A stretch of 64,000 nucleotides of DNA from a phage, in sequence record PZ049694.1; one strand, written 5' to 3'. Positions 13,041 to 35,856 of this stretch are shown here, piece after piece. The first letter of the stretch is position 1, and every line of letters begins with the position of its first letter. A program made the position numbers and the translations under genes. The notes below the pieces were generated by a model, which had not been told where the DNA came from, did not search any database, and worked only from the letters and a program-made list of their open reading frames with translations.

Positions 13041-13243
13041 TATTCTTCTACATGTTGTTTACGGCCTTTCTTATCGATAAAAGTATATTCAACGAATGTT
13101 CCGATGTAGTCTTTATCTACATCATGTGGACTATTAATTGGACATTTGGTACGACAAATGCGTTCCCATTGACGAATAATTACTGCCTTATTCTTTGGGT
13201 CATATGGATGTGGATAATGTATATTCATAATAATGGTTCCCAA
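13016..13243 (-). CDS. hypothetical protein, 75 aa
   Basis: ORF. Confidence 0.45.
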   Translation of the reverse strand: MGTIIMNIHYPHPYDPKNKAVIIRQWERICRTKCPINSPHDVDKDYIGTFVEYTFIDKKGRKQHVEEYCLKVTWL

Positions 13244-13722
13244 TCAACAATCACAATTTCTAGTTTAGTGGAATACGTATCTAAAATCTCTTCGATGACA
13301 TCCCAGTTTCCACCACCAATACCTGCACCAATTCTTGGCATATAAATTACAGGCTTTGTTATCTTATTCTTTCCGAATTCATTTAATTCTATTATACAAT
13401 TCATTAAAGCATAGTACTCAAAATTAGGTCCCGGCTCAAACTGTGTATAAAGATTAAAGCAATAAGCTTTATGGGTCTTAAAATATTTTTCATAAACCGA
13501 ATAAGTCCCGAGTTTAGACTTGTCTCCGAATTCGGTTTGAAGTTTATCGGCTTCTAAAATTTTTGGATAAGCCTTTGCTAATTGTCCTGCCACACCAGCG
13601 CCCATTGTATGAAAACAATTACACCCATGAGCAATATTATTACCTTTAGAAAACAGGGCGACAATATCGCCCTTGATATAGTTTTTAATCACTTGCTGCA
13701 AGTCCTCTAGTATAAGAGTCAA
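13225..13722 (-). CDS. macro-domain protein (ADP-ribose binding/processing fold), 165 aa
   Basis: GDIV...NIAHGCNCFHTMGAGVAGQL resembles the macro N..GGGV.A motif; second glycine-rich loop PRIGAGIGGG. Confidence 0.6.
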   Translation of the reverse strand: MTLILEDLQQVIKNYIKGDIVALFSKGNNIAHGCNCFHTMGAGVAGQLAKAYPKILEADKLQTEFGDKSKLGTYSVYEKYFKTHKAYCFNLYTQFEPGPNFEYYALMNCIIELNEFGKNKITKPVIYMPRIGAGIGGGNWDVIEEILDTYSTKLEIVIVDWEPLL

Positions 13723-18954: not shown

Positions 18955-19413
18955 TTATAGGAGGGTAGTGAGCACCTTATATAATGATTTGCCCATTACA
19001 TATTCCCATTGAGAAGGTTTAATTAAAGCGAATGCATCAAATTCAGGAATCTGACGTCCGTCTGGGAATGTATGATAGGAATTACAAACACTGTTTCTGA
19101 ATTGCTCGTGCTCTACAGGGATGGTATATAGGAACAGATGAATATTCTTATTGTCTGAGTAATGATGTTCACCTAGGTCTTTCAGGAAGGCAGGGTCATA
19201 TTGTGTAAACCCAGTTTCTTCTTCGCATTCACGAATAGCGGCTTCAATAGGAGATTCGCCAGGCTCGACACGTCCTTTAGGAATATCCCACCGATGAGCT
19301 AAAGAACCTTTAGGACGAGAACCAGTTACACGCCCCATGAATAATTCTTTATCTTCGGTAAGGAAAATAATACCGGCTGATAGTTCTTTCACTTTATTTT
19401 TCTTACTCATCAT
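18955..19413 (-). CDS. nudE: Nudix hydrolase
   Basis: Nudix box GRVEPGESPIEAAIRECEEETGF; immediately upstream of e as in T4. Confidence 0.8.
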   Translation of the reverse strand: MMSKKNKVKELSAGIIFLTEDKELFMGRVTGSRPKGSLAHRWDIPKGRVEPGESPIEAAIRECEEETGFTQYDPAFLKDLGEHHYSDNKNIHLFLYTIPVEHEQFRNSVCNSYHTFPDGRQIPEFDAFALIKPSQWEYVMGKSLYKVLTTLL

Positions 19414-19654
19414 CTCGGTCCCATGATTTGACCATTAATTCGGACATAAATTCTTCAATGCGCGTTTCTTTAGATGGACTTTCACTATTAGAGACCGCAA
19501 GTTTGTAATCTGCAATAGGACAGAACATATCAAGGTCCATATTAAGGTCGTCTTTGATTTTTTCTTCTGACACATCTTTATCGTATGTATACAGATAACT
19601 ATCACACGATTCTGATTTAATGTAAATTGCTATACTCATCTCAAATTCCTGCAT
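19403..19654 (-). CDS. hypothetical acidic protein, 83 aa
   Basis: ORF overlapping both neighbours by a few codons. Confidence 0.45.
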   Translation of the reverse strand: MQEFEMSIAIYIKSESCDSYLYTYDKDVSEEKIKDDLNMDLDMFCPIADYKLAVSNSESPSKETRIEEFMSELMVKSWDRDDE

Positions 19655-20127
19655 TCGGTAATAAAACGTTCAACTTCATTATTCTTGGCTTTTATCTTGT
19701 CTTTATGTTCTTGTAAACTACTTTTAATAAGATTAATAATGATGCCTACAGTACCTCCACCAATTATACCGCCAATTATACTTACGATAGTAGATGCTAA
19801 TAAGATAGCGATAATATCTAGTACAGCAAAGGCACTTACTTTAGTACTAAAAAACCATACCGACGGTACAAATATAATCCATCCTGTTATCCATTGGCAC
19901 TTATTGAAAAACTTTTCAAGCTCAGCTTGAGTTGTTCGTATTACTTCATCGATAGGTTGATATCCATTAATGTATCTATTCACGATAATACCTGCTGGCT
20001 GGTCGATTTTAAATTCTTGGCAAATACGTTTCACTAAGTAGGATGGACATCCTGTCCAATCTACTGAATAGTATGAAATACCTTCGTTGCCATCGTCTAT
20101 ATTAGACCAATATGTTTTGTTAATCAT
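19636..20127 (-). CDS. membrane protein with C-terminal ERFITECR tail motif, 163 aa
   Basis: soluble N-domain, two hydrophobic helices, C-terminus ...NNEVERFITECRNLR; ATGA-coupled to upstream gene. Confidence 0.6.
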   Translation of the reverse strand: MINKTYWSNIDDGNEGISYYSVDWTGCPSYLVKRICQEFKIDQPAGIIVNRYINGYQPIDEVIRTTQAELEKFFNKCQWITGWIIFVPSVWFFSTKVSAFAVLDIIAILLASTIVSIIGGIIGGGTVGIIINLIKSSLQEHKDKIKAKNNEVERFITECRNLR

Positions 20128-20813
20128 TACCAGCCTTCCATAGGGAATTCCAGATAAACTTGAGCGTTGACACGAATTTCATTGGTAATCTTTTTAACTC
20201 GGTCTGTATTACGAGATACACGTCCGAACCAACGCCATCCATTACTAATTGCACGAGAACCAGTGTGCCATGTTTGCCAATCAAACTGAAGAAGAGTACG
20301 GTCCGGAGCTTCCCATTTCTCTAGTTCGCCTTTTTCGATTTTTTCGAGGACTTCTTTGTGCCACTGGCGATAGATAAGTTCGCCATCAGGAATCTGACTG
20401 AACTCCGCAGTTCCTGTTGCAAAATGAGTAGGACACACATCAGCATTAACAAGACCAAGAATATGTTCAGAATGGTAACGAGGGTTGTCATAATCAGGTT
20501 GTCCTGCAGTAATAAAATGTTGTCCTGTTGGAATATCTGGGCGTGGTACGTCATCATGGTGATATCCAGGAATAGCAGGATACCAACCAGGCATCAGCAT
20601 GTGGACTCGTGAATCAAATACTACATCCGAGACTTTCCAATCATCAGGAAGATTTTGGATAAAGCTACGAGTAATCGGGCCGCCATTATCAAAAGCAAAA
20701 TTCAAATCGCAGTTAAAGAACATAGGCTCGTTTTTAATCTGGTCGTTTTTAATCGCATGAGCAAAACCACCTACTGCACGAGCTTGACTATTAAACACTT
20801 TAGAACTATTCAT
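20127..20813 (-). CDS. possible 2OG-Fe(II) oxygenase-fold protein, 228 aa
   Basis: HxD candidate (GYHHDD) then distal His (WHTGSR) and RxS (GRVSR) at plausible spacing; assignment tentative. Confidence 0.35.
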   Translation of the reverse strand: MNSSKVFNSQARAVGGFAHAIKNDQIKNEPMFFNCDLNFAFDNGGPITRSFIQNLPDDWKVSDVVFDSRVHMLMPGWYPAIPGYHHDDVPRPDIPTGQHFITAGQPDYDNPRYHSEHILGLVNADVCPTHFATGTAEFSQIPDGELIYRQWHKEVLEKIEKGELEKWEAPDRTLLQFDWQTWHTGSRAISNGWRWFGRVSRNTDRVKKITNEIRVNAQVYLEFPMEGW

Positions 20814-20814
20814 A

Positions 20815-21120
20815 TTATTTTCCTCGACATTCTTTAATGAAATTTTCTAGATTGGTAGATTCAATAGCTTTTTTACGAGCTTCTGCGTGTTCTTCTTCGG
20901 ACAATTTACGTTTATAATTGACCCAGACATTATGGTCGAAACCAGTCGTGGCATATAATAACAATGCTCCAACGAATAGCAAAAACGGCGATAAGAATAC
21001 AAAACCAGGAACACCATCCATATCGTAAGCCTTTTGTAATACTGCAACAGAAAGAGCTACGTAAAAAGGTGATGCAAGTATTGTTAAAAGACCAATTCGG
21101 TTGGTTTCTGTTAATTTCAT
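20815..21120 (-). CDS. membrane protein with C-terminal ENFIKECR tail motif, 101 aa
   Basis: two hydrophobic helices; C-terminus ...NLENFIKECRGK. Confidence 0.6.
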   Translation of the reverse strand: MKLTETNRIGLLTILASPFYVALSVAVLQKAYDMDGVPGFVFLSPFLLFVGALLLYATTGFDHNVWVNYKRKLSEEEHAEARKKAIESTNLENFIKECRGK

Positions 21121-21176
21121 AATATTCTCCTCAAGTTGATAGGACTACTATAACATAGCCCTATCAGTTTGTACAC

Positions 21177-21457: not shown

Positions 21458-22414
21458 TTATTTGAAAGGTTTTACCATATGGAAATTTTGTTTGAAACGT
21501 TTTACGTAATCGTCGTGTCCTAAGCTTTGGTACATACTTACTACTTTGCTATAATTTTCCCAAGCGAACTCACGGAACCATCCTGATGTGATTGATGTAC
21601 AGACCTTTTCCAATGCCATCATGAAACTGGCTTCAGGGTTAATTTTAAAGTCATTAGGAATCTGAGAACGTTCTAACGCTAGTACACATGATTCTTCATA
21701 TACACCGGCCAATTTGACAATTTCTGGTAACGATTCGAACTTCTCGCGTGAGGTCATGACTTCAGAACCGTCTTTCATATAAAATGTATAAGCCGGACGG
21801 TCTGTTAGTGCAATGGCTTCATGAATAGTATCATGGTCATACGTATAGATGTCATCTTTAAAGAACGCACTTTTAGAAGTGTCAAGAACTGGGTGAGCAT
21901 AGTTCAAGGTTTCTTTCTGGCGTTTCAGCATAATTTCAGTAAGTTCATCGTTCAGTGTAACACCTTTACCACGAAGATACTGAATATGGTTCATAGTCTT
22001 TAAAAAGAATGGATTATTTTTCTTGAAACGATGAGACATCTTAATTGCAAGACATATCTCAGGAGTTGCCCAGTAAAACCCGTTCAAACGGTCTTTAGTC
22101 AAATTTTTCTTGGCGTATTTTAAAAGGTCATAAGAAGACGTGAAATCTTCAGGAGTGAGTTCACCTACTAATTCACGGACATTAGTGATTGCCGGAACAA
22201 TATATGCTTCAAAATGAGTTTCGCGTCCATTATGGAAGCATTTGAAAACTTGGACATCAGGGTTATCTTGGTGAACATATACACCCATCATTTGATTTTT
22301 GAATGCGTTCCAAGAACCTTGGTCCGCAATAAAGTCCCAATCGCTATTTTTGATAGCGCTAGAATCAATAAGACCGTGATAGTGAAGTGCACGAGAACCA
22401 ATAACTAACATCAT
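21458..22414 (-). CDS. hypothetical protein, possible divergent nucleotidyltransferase fold, 318 aa
   Basis: N-terminus MMLVIGSRALHYHG...SDWDF loosely parallels GS...SDVDF of ORF 8644..9657; GAGGA Shine-Dalgarno. Confidence 0.45.
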   Translation of the reverse strand: MMLVIGSRALHYHGLIDSSAIKNSDWDFIADQGSWNAFKNQMMGVYVHQDNPDVQVFKCFHNGRETHFEAYIVPAITNVRELVGELTPEDFTSSYDLLKYAKKNLTKDRLNGFYWATPEICLAIKMSHRFKKNNPFFLKTMNHIQYLRGKGVTLNDELTEIMLKRQKETLNYAHPVLDTSKSAFFKDDIYTYDHDTIHEAIALTDRPAYTFYMKDGSEVMTSREKFESLPEIVKLAGVYEESCVLALERSQIPNDFKINPEASFMMALEKVCTSITSGWFREFAWENYSKVVSMYQSLGHDDYVKRFKQNFHMVKPFK

Positions 22415-22740: not shown

Positions 22741-22938
22741 TTAGCAAGAATAACTAGACGATACCCAGCCTTGAACAGTGATACTATTGTGGGATAATGA
22801 GATCGCGTCCTGGAGATTCAGACCTGCGTTATCTTCAATCCATAACGTAACTTCTTCGCGTTCTTCTGTTGCAATTTGGAACAGGTTTTCCAGAGCAGCT
22901 ACTGCCGTACGTACAGCACAATCTAATTCACGAGACAT
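22741..22938 (-). CDS. small protein, paralog 3 of tandem family ending ...GWVSSSYSC
   Basis: 65 aa; shares N-terminal MS(K/R) and invariant C-terminal GW[VI][SA]SSxxC with 22948..23220 and 23230..23535. Confidence 0.55.
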   Translation of the reverse strand: MSRELDCAVRTAVAALENLFQIATEEREEVTLWIEDNAGLNLQDAISLSHNSITVQGWVSSSYSC

Positions 22939-22947
22939 ATGGTTTCC

Positions 22948-23220
22948 TTAGCAAGTGTGAGAAGATGCGATCCAACCACCAGTTTCGAGGCTTAGGTTGT
23001 AGTCGTATTGGTAAACGTCGGCCCATTCAGCATAGCCGTTTTTTGTACAACGTTCAAGGTCGGCTTTAAGCTGTCCGGGTGAATGATATGTTCCACCCAT
23101 ACCATAAGCTGGATACAAGTCGAATGTTGTGTTTTGTTTATCAGCAATTTCTTTGGCAGCCTCAATAGCTGCATAGATTTTTGCTACAGCTTCGGCCAGT
23201 TCGGTTTGTTCTTTAGACAT
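22948..23220 (-). CDS. small protein, paralog 2 of tandem family ending ...GWIASSHTC
   Basis: 90 aa; tandem with 9-nt spacers; AGGA Shine-Dalgarno. Confidence 0.55.
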   Translation of the reverse strand: MSKEQTELAEAVAKIYAAIEAAKEIADKQNTTFDLYPAYGMGGTYHSPGQLKADLERCTKNGYAEWADVYQYDYNLSLETGGWIASSHTC

Positions 23221-23229
23221 AATGATTCC

Positions 23230-23535
23230 TTAGCACATCGCAGAAGACGAAACCCAAGCACCTTCAGTAATAACGTAACCATTACCTTCACGCTTAACAT
23301 CGCCACCATTATTTTCAATTTCATCTTTCATCCACTGGGATACGATTTCACCCTTAGGATAATAAGTACGACCGCTACCATAATCACCTACAGAAAATGA
23401 TACGGCATATTGGTCCGCGATCTTTGTTGCTTCTTCTTCGATACGTTCAGCTTGATTCAGAAGTTTATAAATTGCATCTGAAGCGGATTTGGCATCATTA
23501 AACTCTGGTACTTTAATTTCAATAATCTTACTCAT
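23230..23535 (-). CDS. small protein, paralog 1 of tandem family ending ...AWVSSSAMC
   Basis: 101 aa; ATGA-coupled to upstream membrane-protein gene. Confidence 0.55.
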   Translation of the reverse strand: MSKIIEIKVPEFNDAKSASDAIYKLLNQAERIEEEATKIADQYAVSFSVGDYGSGRTYYPKGEIVSQWMKDEIENNGGDVKREGNGYVITEGAWVSSSAMC

Positions 23536-23891
23536 TTTCTACATTCCTTAATAAAGTTTTCGATTGTTTCATTTTCACGTCTAGCTAGGAGTTCATTATA
23601 ACTAATCATTTGAGAAGCGTAAACCTTTTTATTTTTCTTGTTATGGTTTATAAAATCGTAGTAAAAATAGACTACAGTACAAAATGATGCGATGGATGCA
23701 AAGGCTTGGGTATACCGTAAGTCCCGCCATTGGTCTATGAATCCGCCAGTGTTACCTATAAATCCTAATACAACTCCGTCAATAAGAAATCCAACTAATC
23801 CAAAGGCAAATCCCATGCCAATACTCATAATAAAAATTAGAATGTTCTCACCAAGAGAAGGCCATACGGTTAAGAGTTGAGGCTTTTGCAT
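23532..23891 (-). CDS. membrane protein with C-terminal ENFIKECR tail motif, 119 aa
   Basis: hydrophobic helices then ...ETIENFIKECRK. Confidence 0.55.
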   Translation of the reverse strand: MQKPQLLTVWPSLGENILIFIMSIGMGFAFGLVGFLIDGVVLGFIGNTGGFIDQWRDLRYTQAFASIASFCTVVYFYYDFINHNKKNKKVYASQMISYNELLARRENETIENFIKECRK

Positions 23892-24295
23892 CTTATTTCC
23901 TTAACGAATTCCATAGCTTCTTCATATTCATACTTTTTAACAGCTTCATCATACTGAGCTTGGGCTTTTGCGCACTGAACTTTCCACTCACGAACTCGGG
24001 CTCTGTGATGACGGCCTTGGTACCAATATCCCACCCAGTTAATAGGCATTAATAAAAATGGTACAATAAACGACCCGGCTATAATAAGTAAAAACACTGC
24101 ATCAGACGATATAACTTTATTGGAATCTAAAATAGCTCCTATAATCATAAAGATTAAAAATGCTAAAGCTAAAATAGGACCAAACAACACTTCATTAGGA
24201 ATTAATTTACGTTTGTATTCGTATGCCCAGGGCTTAATTGGCATGTACAGGGTTGGCTTTGACATATTCTCTACATTCCATAATAAATTGCTCAA
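23870..24295 (-). CDS. membrane protein with related C-terminal motif (EFVKEIRCK), 141 aa
   Basis: two hydrophobic helices; start may be an internal ATG. Confidence 0.5.
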   Translation of the reverse strand: MSNLLWNVENMSKPTLYMPIKPWAYEYKRKLIPNEVLFGPILALAFLIFMIIGAILDSNKVISSDAVFLLIIAGSFIVPFLLMPINWVGYWYQGRHHRARVREWKVQCAKAQAQYDEAVKKYEYEEAMEFVKEIRCKSLNS

Positions 24296-24851
24296 GGATT
24301 AAATTGTTAGTGAAATTAGGACTAACAACCATGGTTTCATAAAGCGCATCAATAGCACTTAAAGCATCAACTCTCTTAAGCAAAGGCTTGCCTTCATACA
24401 TAGTTTCAGAATCGACGATTAAAGTGAAGTAGTATTTTTTATTATTGACCAGAACTTCTGTATCAATATAAAACATGTTAGACCTTAAAAGCTTGTCTCT
24501 AAAGCCTACGTAATCATCTGAACGTTCACTGATATATTCCCATTCAGTGTTTAAACAACAAACAGACCACGTAGGAGCAACGAAATCAGTGAATCTAATA
24601 TCATGATCTGCAACTAATTTAGCAATAGCTCCGATATCATGAATCATAATACCTGGGGCTAATAAAGATTTTCGGCGATTTGCATATTCAGTTGTCTCAT
24701 AAGAAGCTGACCAGTACCATTTACGTCCAGTTGCAACATATCGTAATGAATCAACTAAAGACGTAGGTGGATTTACCTTATTTCGGAACTCTTCGAACAT
24801 TGAGTCAATATCATTATTTTGGTTTCGCATGTTAACTCCTTTATTATCCAA
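24234..24851 (-). CDS. hypothetical soluble protein carrying the same tail motif near its C-terminus (EQFIMECREYV), 205 aa
   Basis: ORF; motif lies 10 aa from the end. Confidence 0.5.
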   Translation of the reverse strand: MDNKGVNMRNQNNDIDSMFEEFRNKVNPPTSLVDSLRYVATGRKWYWSASYETTEYANRRKSLLAPGIMIHDIGAIAKLVADHDIRFTDFVAPTWSVCCLNTEWEYISERSDDYVGFRDKLLRSNMFYIDTEVLVNNKKYYFTLIVDSETMYEGKPLLKRVDALSAIDALYETMVVSPNFTNNLILEQFIMECREYVKANPVHAN

Positions 24852-32212: not shown

Positions 32213-33034
32213 TTAAGATTTCCAAACAGTATTCGCAGAGAAACGTTTTCCTTTTGACATAAACTGCTGAGTAGGTAACATGATTATGTTAGCCCAGTCT
32301 TTAGGAGCTATTTCTGTTATTGTTCCTCTAATGTGGCCTGGCAGGTATGCTTTAATCATTTTGTCAGCACCTTGAAATCCTTTCACTTTGCTCCAGTCTA
32401 TCTTCAACTTCGTGTTATTAGTAATAGTAGTTGTGCTAGCATATTGCTTCAGCAATTCTTCAAGAAACTGTTGTCGTGCTTTAGGTGGGATATAGTGCAA
32501 GTTTAACCCATACATCAAATTATGTTTACCTAATCCTAAATAAATAATCAAAGGATATCGGTCCCAGTATGGCAGAGTATCTTTATGTTTAGCATCATAC
32601 ACGTAAGTATAAATTTTGCCTGGCGTAGGCTTGACTACTTTATGACCTTTTACACTTTTCTTAATTGTTTCAACAAACCACTTAGATGATTTGTTGTTTA
32701 CTGCTGCGCCTTCATTTCTAATCTTTTCTCGTATTGAACTGCGAAACGAGTTTATCATCAGAAGTTGACGTTCTTGCTTATTGAGTTTATTTTTAGGTTT
32801 AGATTCAAGCGTTTCAATTTTCTGTGCAGTCTTAATAGATGATGCATATCTAGACATTGCAGATGTAAATGACGAGTATTTTATTCCTTTTGATTCTGCA
32901 AATGCTTTTGCAGTGATTCCTTTCTCTTTAGCTTTCTTGTATTCTAATCCTATCTCAATCCATTTTCTTTCATTCATAGACTGAGCAATCTTAGGGGCTT
33001 GTACGCCTTCAGATATAATTTGGAATATGCTCAT
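32213..33034 (-). CDS. 2: DNA end-protector gp2
   Basis: 273 aa; synteny and size match T4 gp2. Confidence 0.8.
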
Positions 33035-33036
33035 AA

Positions 33037-33486
33037 TTACCCCTTGTATCCGAGTTTTCTAAGACCATCTTCGGTTAGAACTCGAAATTTTATATTTCTC
33101 TTTTCAGCAACAGCTGCGGCAGCTTTCCATTTGTCACAGTTCACAGACCAGGTATATATTTCATTCATATAACGTTTCTTTGCTGCAGTCGTAAGATTTA
33201 CAGGCTTAATAGGCGGCTGAGTTTCTTTCTTTGGTTTTATTTCTACAAAGAACTCTTGACCTGATGCATCTTTCATCCATATGTCCATGTAGTATCGACG
33301 TTTCTTACCTTCAGCATTACAAAAATATGGAATTACTGCTGTTTCACTACCCCATGCAATAATTTCTGGATTTTTATCTAACCATTCGAAAAAGAATTTT
33401 TCCCAGTTTGAACGATACGTTATTTTGGTATGGTCTCCACGGTATTTTTTTAAATTTTTTGGGACCCATTTACCAGAGTAGGCCAT
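33037..33486 (-). CDS. 4: head completion protein gp4
   Basis: [44 protein letters not shown] matches recalled T4 gp4; start trimmed to that ATG (149 aa). Confidence 0.85.
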
Positions 33487-33497
33487 GTTGTCCTCCT

Positions 33498-33520
33498 TAT
33501 AAATAGTATTATTATTTATA
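33498..33520. promoter_or_regulatory. divergent pair of late promoters (TATAAATA on both strands) between gene 4 and gene 53
   Basis: plus TATAAATA 33498..33505 (gene 53) and minus TATAAATA 33520..33513 (gene 4), each with a downstream Shine-Dalgarno. Confidence 0.55.
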
Positions 33521-33547
33521 CCAATTTCATATTGGAAGGAGACTATC

Positions 33548-34123
33548 TTGTTATTTACATTCTTCGACCCAATAGGATATAGTGCTAAAACAGTTAATAA
33601 GAACGCACCTACTATTCCTATGACAGACATATTTCGTAACTATAAAGAGTACTTTAAGCGTGTTGCTGCCAATTATAGATTACGTTCTTATTACATTAAA
33701 GGCTCTCCGCGTCCTGAAGAACTAGCGAATATCATTTATGGCAACCCTCAATTATACTGGGTCCTTTTGATGTGTAATGACAACTATGATCCGTATTATG
33801 GTTGGATTACATCTCAGGAAGCAGCGTATCAAGCTTCTATTCAGAAATATGCTAATGCTGGCGGTGACCAAATTCTTTATCATATTAACGAGAACCGTGA
33901 GAAATTTTACAATTTGGTTTCATATCCGGACGAGCCTTTAGTGTGGTACGATAAAGGTGATGAAGCTCGTAAGTATCCGCAATATAAAGGACCTTTAGCT
34001 GCAGTAGATACTTATGAAGCGGCAGTATTAGATAATGAAAAACTTCGTAAAATAAAAATTGTTGCAAAAGAAGATATAAACTCGTTTATCACAGATTTGA
34101 TTCGTGAGATGGAGATTGCATAA
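33548..34123 (+). CDS. 53: baseplate wedge protein gp53
   Basis: 191 aa; MLFTFFDPI.Y.AKTVNKNAPTIPMTDIFRNYK.YFKR matches recalled T4 gp53; apparent TTG start with GGAAGGAG Shine-Dalgarno. Confidence 0.88.
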   Translation: MLFTFFDPIGYSAKTVNKNAPTIPMTDIFRNYKEYFKRVAANYRLRSYYIKGSPRPEELANIIYGNPQLYWVLLMCNDNYDPYYGWITSQEAAYQASIQKYANAGGDQILYHINENREKFYNLVSYPDEPLVWYDKGDEARKYPQYKGPLAAVDTYEAAVLDNEKLRKIKIVAKEDINSFITDLIREMEIA

Positions 34124-35856
34124 TGGAAATGATTAGCAGTAGCCTTAATTGGTTCGTGGGTGTTGTCGAGGACAGAATGGACCCGTTAAAACAAGGGCGA
34201 GTTCGAGTTCGAGTCGTTGGTCTTCATCCAGCGCAGAGAACACAAGGTGATGTACAAGGTATTCCTACAGAAAAACTTCCATGGATGACTGTTATTCAAC
34301 CTATTACGTCTGCATCAATGTCAGGTATTGGTGGTTCTGTTACAGGTCCTGTTGAAGGAACTCGAGTATATGGTCATTTCTTAGACAAATGGAAAACAAA
34401 CGGGATTGTACTTGGCACATACGGCGGAATAGTACGTGAAAAGCCTAATAGACTTGAAGGTTTTTCAGACCCGACAGGCCAGTATCCGCGACGTTTAGGT
34501 AATGATACGAACGTACTAAACCAAGGTGGTGAAGCTGGTTATTATTCGAACTCTAACGTAATTCAAGATAACAACTTGGATTATGGTATAAACCCAGACG
34601 ATACAGATTTAGCAAATATTCCAGAAGATGATGACCCTAATTTTACAATAACGGAAATGTTACGTCGTGACGAAGGTCTTCGTGATAAAGTGTATTGGGA
34701 CCATCTCGGATATCCTACAGTAGGTATTGGTCACCTTATCGTAATGGAAAAGACCCGAGATATGTCTCGAATTAATAAATTGTTATCTGATCAAGTAGGG
34801 CGTGAAGTAACAGGAAATCCGGGAACTATTACATTAGAAGAAGCAACAGCGTTATTTGAGAAGGACCTTGCTAAGATGCAGAAAGACATTCGTTCTAATT
34901 CTAAAGTAGGTCCTGTTTATGCTAAAATGAACAGATCTCGCCAAATGGCATTAGAAAACATGTGCTTCCAGATGGGCGTTGGTGGTGTAGCAAAATTCAA
35001 TACTATGCTTAAAGCAATGGCCACAGGTGATTGGAAAACCGCATACAAATCCGGACGCGATTCATTATGGTTCCAACAGACTAAAGGGCGTGCTTCACGT
35101 GTAACAACAATTATTTTAACCGGTAACATGGAATCATACGGTGTTCCTGTTAAAACACCGCCTTCACCGGGAGTTGGTGCTGATTTAGTTACTAGAAATA
35201 CCGATCCAGAAGACCCGGCTGGTCCTCCTGTTCCATTAGATTCACGTATCCTTTTTAAAGAACCGGAATCAAGTTATCGTGGTGAGTATCCATACGTTCA
35301 TGCTATGGAAACAGAAAGCGGTCATATCCAAGAATTTGACGATACTCCAGGTAATGAACGTTATCGCTTAGTTCATCCAACAGGGTCATATGAGGAAGTT
35401 TCTCCGTCTGGACGTCGTACTCGTAAAACTGTAGAAGACCTTTTTGACATTACTAATGGCGATGGGAACTTCTTGATTTCTGGCGATAAGCTTGTTAACG
35501 TTGGTGCTAATGAAATATATTATAACATGGCAGACCGCCTCCATCAAATAGACGGCAATGACACAATCTTTATTCGTGGTAATCAAACTAAAACTGTTGA
35601 AGGCGATGGAACTCTTTACGTTAAGGGCAATATCAAAATAGTTGTTGACGGAAATGCCGATATTCTTGTTAAAGGTGATGCTAAAACTCAGGTCGAAGGG
35701 AATCATGATTACACCGTAAACGGAAACGTTAAATGGACTGTTAATGGTAATGTTGATATGACTGTTGCTGGGGATTGGGCAGAAACAATGTCTACAATGA
35801 GCTCAGTAGCTTCAGGACAATACACTGTTGACGGATCTCGTATTGATATTGGGTAA
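34123..35856 (+). CDS. 5: baseplate hub / cell-puncturing device with lysozyme domain gp5
   Basis: 577 aa; N-terminal OB domain, central lysozyme domain (ITEMLRRDEGLRDKVYWDHLGYPTVGIGHL) and C-terminal repetitive beta-helix. Confidence 0.9.
   Translation: MEMISSSLNWFVGVVEDRMDPLKQGRVRVRVVGLHPAQRTQGDVQGIPTEKLPWMTVIQPITSASMSGIGGSVTGPVEGTRVYGHFLDKWKTNGIVLGTYGGIVREKPNRLEGFSDPTGQYPRRLGNDTNVLNQGGEAGYYSNSNVIQDNNLDYGINPDDTDLANIPEDDDPNFTITEMLRRDEGLRDKVYWDHLGYPTVGIGHLIVMEKTRDMSRINKLLSDQVGREVTGNPGTITLEEATALFEKDLAKMQKDIRSNSKVGPVYAKMNRSRQMALENMCFQMGVGGVAKFNTMLKAMATGDWKTAYKSGRDSLWFQQTKGRASRVTTIILTGNMESYGVPVKTPPSPGVGADLVTRNTDPEDPAGPPVPLDSRILFKEPESSYRGEYPYVHAMETESGHIQEFDDTPGNERYRLVHPTGSYEEVSPSGRRTRKTVEDLFDITNGDGNFLISGDKLVNVGANEIYYNMADRLHQIDGNDTIFIRGNQTKTVEGDGTLYVKGNIKIVVDGNADILVKGDAKTQVEGNHDYTVNGNVKWTVNGNVDMTVAGDWAETMSTMSSVASGQYTVDGSRIDIG

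Follow-up and report, generated by a model that had tools for sequence, protein, structure and literature searches.

A Predicted Fe(II)/2-Oxoglutarate Oxygenase of a T4-Type Phage Represents a Phage-Specific Family Recurrently Found Beside NAMPT Genes

Introduction

What kind of enzyme, if any, is encoded between two small membrane proteins in the genome of a T4-type phage, and on what might it act? The question is raised by an open reading frame (ORF) of 228 amino acids (aa) located in sequence record PZ049694.1, a stretch of 64,000 nucleotides (hereafter the window, i.e., the whole of this stretch) belonging to a phage of the T4 type, genus Mosigvirus (RB69-like). In the initial annotation, made on the letters of the window, this ORF was tentatively regarded as a 2-oxoglutarate (2OG)/Fe(II) oxygenase, and it was suggested that a hydroxylase or demethylase in this position could act on nucleic acid or on the neighbouring peptides. 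The fold label is already known from two independent automated annotations, i.e., "2OG-Fe(II) oxygenase" (GenBank PQ480333) and "Phytanoyl-CoA dioxygenase family protein" (UniRef). What is added here is the invariance of the catalytic residues throughout the family, the incidental nature of the local context, and a testable, previously unreported recurrent coupling of the gene to NAMPT genes of both phage NAD+ reconstitution pathways (NARP1 and NARP2). No description of the oxygenase family was found in the literature searches, and nearly every database record labels its members "hypothetical protein".

Conserved Residues and Predicted Fold

The 228-aa ORF was confirmed in the window as a real ORF on the minus strand, with its ATG at position 20813 and its stop at 20127. 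All the motifs on which the tentative assignment had been built were found in its translation: GYHHDD corresponds to G83-Y84-H85-H86-D87-D88, the HxD being H85-x-D87; WHTGSR holds H183; and GRVSR corresponds to G197-R198-V199-S200-R201. Motifs as short as HxD/H/RxS are expected to occur by chance in any single protein; those of this protein are more than chance, because the ligands are kept across 128 homologues, 25–77% identical to the query, many of which share only 25–35% of their residues with it. The family alignment, for which the window protein and gp122 of mycobacteriophage Reindeer served as queries in two database searches, contains 16 invariant columns. H85, D87, H183, and R198 are invariant (128/128 homologues), R194 is kept in 127/128, and position 200 is occupied by Ser or Thr in 120/128. 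Around the HxD motif, P79, I81, P82, G83, H85, D87, P90, and R91 are the same in 128/128 sequences, and the invariant positions beyond the metal and 2OG ligands include D67, R91, Y148, R214, P90, and G44. Two signatures, P-A-I-P-G-[WFY]-H-x-D-x-V-P-R and the strand GWRxxxRV[ST], are both specific to the oxygenase family.

The AlphaFold2 (AF2) model calculated on the 128-homologue alignment has a mean pLDDT of 92.6 and a pTM of 0.89. Its strands (residues 64–73, about 77–85, 116–122, 129–138, 165–168, 173–178, 182–185, and 192–201) follow one another in the order of a double-stranded beta-helix, so that the structure prediction proposed in the initial annotation as a check returned a jelly-roll fold, with the HxD, H183, and Arg residues on the canonical strands. 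The HxD comes after strand II, H183 lies on strand VII (182–185), both arginines lie on strand VIII (192–201), and strands IV and V are separated by an inserted helix. The features of the superfamily present in the protein are, hence, the double-stranded beta-helix core, the HxD...H triad at the canonical strand positions, and a basic residue on strand VIII. The loop 88–115 is long and conserved and is modelled less confidently (pLDDT about 71–76). Judging from the strand positions and the fold matches, H85, D87, and H183 would converge on one metal site, and the carboxylate of 2OG would be held by R194 and/or R198, both of which are candidates. The invariant ligands and the predicted beta-helix support the fold suggested at first, and the evidence as a whole makes it almost certain that the 228-aa protein has the Fe(II)/2OG oxygenase fold; by analogy with the superfamily, it is very probably an active, catalytically competent enzyme. 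Catalysis, like the substrate and the biological role discussed below, is what we infer from the fold and the conserved ligands.

Relationship with Known Oxygenases

The profile searches recommended in the initial annotation gave no match. No significant family was retrieved from Pfam, NCBIfam, or PADLOC for the query or for any of the 128 homologues; Pfam PhyH (PF05721) did not match any of them at E <= 1, and the profiles of AlkB (Pfam 2OG-FeII_Oxy_2), Tet_JBP, and prolyl 4-hydroxylase (P4H; 2OG-FeII_Oxy_3/P4Hc) matched none. PHROG 1843, to which the protein belongs, carries no assigned function. Weak matches to AAR2_1st, IPP-isomerase, and pentapeptide-repeat families were discarded as noise. 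The sequence searches of the PDB, performed with phmmer and two profiles, revealed no significant relative; the single match of the broader profile (A5), i.e., the Fe/2OG halogenase BesD, is non-significant (E 0.41) and pairs H183 and R194 with a His and an Arg, respectively, of the halogenase.

The comparison of structures was more informative about the core of the protein. Foldseek retrieved HygX, GriE, EvdO2, and EctD from the PDB (E about 4e-4); since the TM is only about 0.4, the likeness to these structures is confined to the core. The closest known kind of enzyme is represented by the PhyH-like small-molecule oxygenases (EasH, L-proline hydroxylase H11, ectoine hydroxylase EctD, HygX, GriE, EvdO2, and human PHYH), with which the window protein has no detectable sequence relationship (identity 8–15%, TM about 0.4, no Pfam PhyH match); the two signatures PAIPG[WFY]HxDxVPR and GWRxxxRV[ST] belong to the phage family only, and the phage family is found in phages only. 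In the absence of a PhyH profile match, the protein is PhyH-like in structure only. A similar situation, with small oxygenase genes embedded in the variable regions of T4-type phages, is that of the 2OG-Fe(II)/PhyH-domain proteins of T4-like cyanophages (PMC3037559). These gave weaker Foldseek matches in BFVD (E 1e-3 to 1e-2, TM 0.3–0.4) and are recognised by Pfam, whereas the window family is not, so that the two are separate families. Since none of the profiles tested matched, the family is a distinct, phage-specific one within a well-known superfamily and falls outside Pfam PhyH, AlkB, TET/JBP, and P4H.

Size and Distribution of the Family

An exhaustive HMMER scan (E <= 1e-3) disclosed 625 clusters at 50% identity, nearly all of them consisting of proteins of about 205–240 aa (~220 aa). 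The gene is present in 473 GenBank phage records, mainly from phages of Escherichia (201), Aeromonas (63), Mycobacterium (33), Klebsiella (26), and Gordonia (22), besides others; the gene of the window represents, in other words, a large phage-only enzyme family that no curated profile library covers; many of its carriers, infecting Escherichia, Klebsiella, Aeromonas, or mycobacteria, serve in research and therapy. Only 12 matches were found in 185,579 prokaryotic species genomes (one genome per species), and the readable ones either match viral loci or have phage-like surroundings of early/replication genes (helicase, SSB, and series of small ORFs on one strand), which makes the family essentially phage/prophage-only. 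A tblastn search of the GenBank phages with a distant family member gave only T4-type phages among the matches listed. The oxygenase of the window is 99.6% identical to that of its closest GenBank record, Escherichia phage NRG-P0074, and the gene is about 80% identical between Escherichia and Aeromonas T4-type phages, where it occupies different genome positions.

The long members of the family (the metagenomic proteins P0254, P0302, and P0381) carry the oxygenase domain twice in tandem, and the HxD...H triad is missing from the second, degenerate copy; no other fusions, and no Pfam domains, were found among them. They look like covalent pseudo-dimers, which suggests that the single-domain proteins might act as dimers, and they carry no information on the substrate. 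As a separate observation, in L007 (8001-8693; JGI metagenomic contig Ga0120947_10002, 611 kb) and in L008 (L numbers being our designations of loci), an oxygenase 71% identical to that of the window lies at the edge of a prophage-like block, which in L007 comprises small ORFs, a helicase, and an N6/N4 methylase and adjoins housekeeping-type genes. An identity of 71% between a gene of a T4-type coliphage and one of a prophage-like region of a different genome is unusually high.

Recurrent Linkage to NAMPT Genes

The organization of the genes surrounding the oxygenase was compared in 112 non-redundant loci (from IMG/VR, GenBank phages, assemblies, and the window), whose ORFs were predicted with a simple caller of our own and clustered by BLASTP. 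Outside the T4-type block, the only recurrent cluster of oxygenase-adjacent genes is that of a NAMPT-family protein (Pfam NAPRTase + NAMPT_N), which is encoded on the same strand and within 6 kb of the oxygenase in 11/112 loci. It lies directly upstream of the oxygenase in six of them (L004, L043, L050, L075, L082, and L116), and in four of these six the NAMPT stop and the oxygenase start share 4 nt. Partners of both pathways accompany the pair: Prs-like proteins (NARP1 type) in three loci, i.e., L004 (Pseudoalteromonas phage H101), L043, and L074, and NMNAT-Nudix fusions (NARP2 type) in four (L082, L085, L091, and L116), with an NAD kinase (L153), a Macro domain (L082), and a NudE-like Nudix (L085) as further partners. 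The linkage is not that of one recent lineage, because in a neighbour-joining tree the 11 NAMPT-linked oxygenases take six or more separate positions, bracketing the T4-type clade, and the NAMPTs of the same loci share only 25–43% identity with one another.

NAMPT is present in 4.0% of GenBank phage records, and NARP1 and NARP2 together have been reported in 5.4% of phage genomes (bioRxiv 10.1101/2024.02.11.579819). Assuming a baseline of about 0.5% per 12-kb neighbourhood, the binomial probability of 11/112 is P = 1.6e-11; in a deliberately conservative variant, which counts only six independent events in 50 synteny groups and raises the baseline five-fold, P = 1.5e-3. The repeated, fusion-like position behind NAMPT/Namat of both NAD+ reconstitution pathways hints that the NAD+ arms race between bacteria and phages has a step still missing from the picture, or an additional layer. 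The nearest precedent, one of the accessory enzymes recently added to this field, is the Macro-domain ADP-ribose-1''-phosphate phosphatase Adpp, an optional accessory of NARP1 present in 15% of NARP1 phages (bioRxiv 10.64898/2026.01.28.702374): both are extra enzyme genes found in a minority of NARP operons, but the oxygenase differs from Adpp in fold and chemistry, is linked to both NARP1- and NARP2-type loci, and mostly occurs with no NARP gene nearby.

The window itself contains no NAMPT, Prs-like, or NMNAT gene within the 13–28 kb stretch analysed, where the only genes of the NAD+/ADP-ribose type are a NudE-type Nudix gene and a Macro-domain ORF. Since the hallmark of a NARP accessory gene, location in one operon with Adps+Namat or Nampt+Nmnat, is absent from the window and present in 11/112 related loci, the NAMPT neighbourhood is a functional lead and not NARP membership. 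Some weaker echoes of the NAD+ theme are given by the NudE gene, the Macro ORF, and a YAcAr SLOG protein encoded five genes downstream of the oxygenase in mycobacteriophage Reindeer. T4 NudE is a Nudix hydrolase of ADP-ribose, FAD, and Ap3A, and a Nudix of the same BLAST cluster as that of the window adjoins NAMPT in L085. The window Macro ORF is 30% identical to the Macro protein encoded directly upstream of NAMPT in L082. YAcAr/SLOG domains are predicted to use NAD+ (PMC7824862).

Two observations concern these proteins in their own right. The Macro ORF (165 aa, 13225-13722, minus strand) matches Pfam Macro (E 3e-6), and its best PADLOC match is the macro domain of the DarG antitoxin (E 5e-8); it may be a de-ADP-ribosylating or ADP-ribose-phosphate-processing counter-defence enzyme. 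The Reindeer protein (gp128; L002 5265-5762), annotated as "DprA-like DNA processing chain A", matches Pfam YAcAr (YspA/cpYpsA-related SLOG, E 4e-11) and not DprA.

Proposed Function and Alternative Explanations

The reading that we favour, to which we would give slightly more than an even chance, is that of a soluble, catalytically competent Fe(II)/2OG oxygenase of a phage-specific family, working as a stand-alone accessory enzyme on a small metabolite, with NAD+/ADP-ribose as the leading guess. By analogy with the superfamily, Fe(II) would be bound by H85 and D87, where the second beta-helix strand ends, and by H183, on the seventh; 2OG would chelate the iron, and R194 and/or R198-x-S200, both on the eighth strand, would hold its distal carboxylate; and the activation of O2 would lead to the decarboxylation of 2OG to succinate and CO2, the resulting Fe(IV)-oxo species hydroxylating the substrate. 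The substrate pocket might be formed by the loop 88–115 (P90, R91, G104, P106, and P111), by the helix with the invariant Y148, by R214, and possibly by R91, R194, or R198. Once fixed, an Fe/2OG oxygenase identity would provide testable chemistry and point mutants (H85A, D87A, and H183A). From the neighbours and the distribution of the gene, the oxygenase would act alone and early in infection, in host takeover or counter-defence, independently of the membrane proteins and of the Cys-tail peptides, and its substrate would be something common to many hosts. That this is a small molecule, probably an anionic metabolite, is about an even bet. Within this class, the NAD+/ADP-ribose sphere is put forward as the leading specific guess because the gene lies repeatedly in or beside phage NAD+ reconstitution operons, and it is a tentative guess, with the odds against it. 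More doubtful is the further step, according to which the family would be a previously unrecognised accessory enzyme of NAD+-centred phage counter-defence. It would attack an NAD+-derived compound oxidatively, converting or destroying it; candidates are a modified nicotinamide, an immune signal derived from ADP-ribose, and an altered NAD+ breakdown product unusable by the NARP enzymes. The enzyme might do so beside NARP1 or NARP2 or alone, as in T4-type phages near NudE.

Several points weigh against this reading. No sequence profile of a 2OG-oxygenase family matches the query or its homologues, and the only PDB sequence match is the non-significant one to BesD. In about 90% of the oxygenase loci, among them the window and every T4-type and actinophage locus, no NAMPT gene lies within 6 kb. 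In the reverse test, in which five of the 11 NAMPTs were used as seeds and 80 NAMPT loci were fetched, the oxygenase was found in 1/80, and that one is the query's own contig, on the basis of which a role as core NARP component was rejected. Accessory genes cluster in variable regions, which raises the chance of adjacency, and the searched literature on NARP1/2, NARP3, aRES, and jumbo-phage NAD+ and conflict systems mentions no oxygenase in a NARP context. Lastly, the data imply no chemically specific reaction. If the NAMPT link is merely positional, the family would be a widespread oxygen-dependent host-takeover enzyme.

Among the other explanations, a protein hydroxylase whose target is a conserved protein of the host or the phage (e.g., RNA polymerase, a ribosomal protein or translation factor, or an effector of defence) would resemble the bacterial PHD-type prolyl hydroxylases acting on EF-Tu or the ribosomal oxygenases; we regard it as unlikely, given that the structures nearest to the model are those of PhyH-like enzymes with small-molecule substrates, that no P4H or JmjC profile matches, and that no partner protein is conserved across about 50 synteny groups. 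A nucleic-acid oxidase, whether a base dioxygenase like TET/JBP or an AlkB-like demethylase that repairs phage DNA/RNA or tRNA, is quite unlikely as well: the phage TET/JBP-type 5-methylpyrimidine dioxygenases (5mYOX) and AlkB are likewise phage-encoded Fe/2OG oxygenases with the same triad (PMC13229309), but the window family matches neither the Tet_JBP nor the AlkB profile, these enzymes are not among its closest structures, and no cognate methyltransferase, glycosyltransferase, or ParB partner was found in the window. A thymine dioxygenase of the TET/JBP type with a ParB partner, considered on account of a ParB-like gene in Reindeer, was rejected, with neither profile or fold support nor recurrence. 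It is very improbable that the protein is a 2OG sink or succinate generator devoid of a substrate, or a non-catalytic binding protein. Modulation of 2OG was indeed proposed for the 2OG-oxygenase and PhyH-like genes of cyanophages (Sullivan et al. 2010; PMC3037559), and the degenerate second copy of the tandem members shows that the fold can persist without the triad; however, many positions beyond the metal and 2OG ligands (D67, R91, Y148, R214, P90, and G44) are invariant, which favours a specific substrate pocket.

The last explanation is the one suggested by the window itself, i.e., that the oxygenase hydroxylates the tail-motif membrane proteins or the C-terminal-Cys peptides encoded nearby, the whole forming a local modification cassette. 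The gene is indeed tightly coupled to two membrane ORFs with an [FI]-x-E-C-R tail, an e.2-like tail-motif ORF lies 3' of the oxygenase in 11 loci, all from Escherichia T4-type phages, and ORFs with a WVSSS..C tail are located 2–4 kb upstream of it in 18 T4-type loci. However, proteins with the tail motif adjoin the oxygenase in only 11/104 loci, on both sides in four, all of them from Escherichia T4-type phages, and the Cys-tail ORFs are absent from all the non-T4 loci, from the Aeromonas phage 31-type and 65-type loci (where the oxygenase is about 80% identical), and from NRG-P0074. This distribution is better explained by the shared synteny of one variable region than by a functional unit. 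The action on neighbouring peptides or membrane proteins envisaged in the initial annotation is, hence, disfavoured, and a functional cassette was rejected because the co-occurrence is restricted to one lineage; we consider it a very improbable explanation. The membrane/Cys-tail "sandwich" is a trait of one variable region in one lineage and not of the oxygenase family.

Genomic Context in T4-Type Phages

The features of the region are listed in Table 1. The gene order of the window is as follows: ipI-side genes, a 318-aa DUF7277/DUF7275 protein, the small membrane ORF, the oxygenase, the e.2-like membrane ORF, an 83-aa ORF, nudE, the lysozyme gene e, an internal head protein, and denV. The syntenic block DUF7275 protein–oxygenase–e.2-like ORF–NudE–lysozyme is found in enterobacterial T4-type phages only; in the Aeromonas phage 31 type, the oxygenase lies between denB and ndd and has no membrane partner. 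The surroundings of the gene described at first sight proved to be accurate: it is closely coupled on both sides, through a TAA-T-ATG junction upstream and a TAATG junction downstream, and both flanking ORFs encode two hydrophobic segments and end with the tails ...NLENFIKECRGK and ...VERFITECRNLR.

Table 1. Features of the window around the oxygenase gene (coordinates refer to positions of the window)
Feature	Coordinates	Strand	Description
Oxygenase gene	20127..20813	(-)	Predicted Fe(II)/2-oxoglutarate-dependent oxygenase, phage-specific family; PHROG 1843; no Pfam family
Proximal iron ligands H85 + D87	20541..20567	(-)	Codons G83-R91 (GYHHDDVPR), end of the second core strand
Distal ligand H183 + R194, R198-x-S200	20214..20270	(-)	Codons W182-S200 (WHTGSRAISNGWRWFGRVS); predicted strands 182-185 and 192-201; Arg/Ser are candidate binders of the 2OG C5-carboxylate
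TAATG junction	20126..20130	(-)	Oxygenase stop shares one base with the start of the downstream membrane-protein ORF; sequence ...GGCTGGTAATGATT...
TAA-T-ATG junction	20811..20817	(-)	Stop of the upstream 101-aa membrane ORF, one base, oxygenase ATG; sequence ...GGAAAATAATATGAAT...
101-aa protein	20815..21120	(-)	Two hydrophobic segments; tail ...ENFIKECRGK (tail motif ENFIKECR); PHROG 9798; upstream of the oxygenase in Mosigvirus-type loci only (window, L001, L011, L012)
163-aa e.2-like protein	19636..20127	(-)	Two hydrophobic segments; tail ...ERFITECRNLR (tail motif ERFITECR); PHROG 2203 "membrane protein"; VR20 homologue annotated as similar to T4 e.2
NudE-type Nudix hydrolase	18955..19413	(-)	Two genes downstream of the oxygenase; Pfam NUDIX E 2e-16; annotated nudE in relatives
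Promoter-like site	21147..21175	(-)	TGTACA-17-TATAGT, extended -10 TG; just 5' of the 101-aa ORF; from a consensus scan only
Tail-motif ORF	23532..23891	(-)	Tail motif ENFIKECR
Tail-motif ORF	23870..24295	(-)	Tail motif EFVKEIRC
Tail-motif ORF	24234..24851	(-)	Tail motif EQFIMECR

Altogether, five minus-strand ORFs with a C-terminal [FIV]-x-E-[CI]-R motif lie within about 5 kb; they look like a paralogous family of small membrane proteins with a conserved cytoplasmic tail. The 163-aa and 101-aa flanking ORFs both match PHROG 2203, the latter weakly, and in related Escherichia T4-type phages the tail of the e.2-like ORF reads ...SFIEECRK.

The triplet of C-terminal-Cys ORFs placed by the initial annotation about 2 kb upstream of the gene is also present, at 22741-23535 on the minus strand, about 1.9–2.7 kb away, with the ends ...WVSSSYSC, ...WIASSHTC, and ...WVSSSAMC. 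In the T4-type loci (L006, L011, L014-L017, L022-L027, L031, L035, L065, L081, L119, and L159, besides the window), one to three such ORFs of 65–106 aa are arranged in tandem, ending with W-[IV]-[AS]-S-S-x-x-C directly before the stop. That their terminal Cys never varies points to a modification or to some metal/thiol function. The 101-aa Cys-tail ORF matches PHROG 899.

The 318-aa protein (21458-22414, minus strand) matches DUF7277 (E 1e-27) and DUF7275 (E 4e-79) and has no sequence relative in the PDB; in T4-type phages, no other gene accompanies the oxygenase upstream as constantly (21 non-redundant loci).

As for transcription, the terminator scan revealed no terminator-like site on the minus strand between the oxygenase and nudE, and the promoter consensus scan returned 29 sites versus the 15.6 expected in shuffles. 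The promoter-like site reported in Table 1 is possibly, on weak evidence, the start of a transcript spanning the membrane ORF, the oxygenase, the e.2-like ORF, and nudE. Finally, the GC skew of the window turns from negative to positive near 34 kb (about 33000–35000), which is consistent with a change of the main coding strand from leftward to rightward gene blocks.

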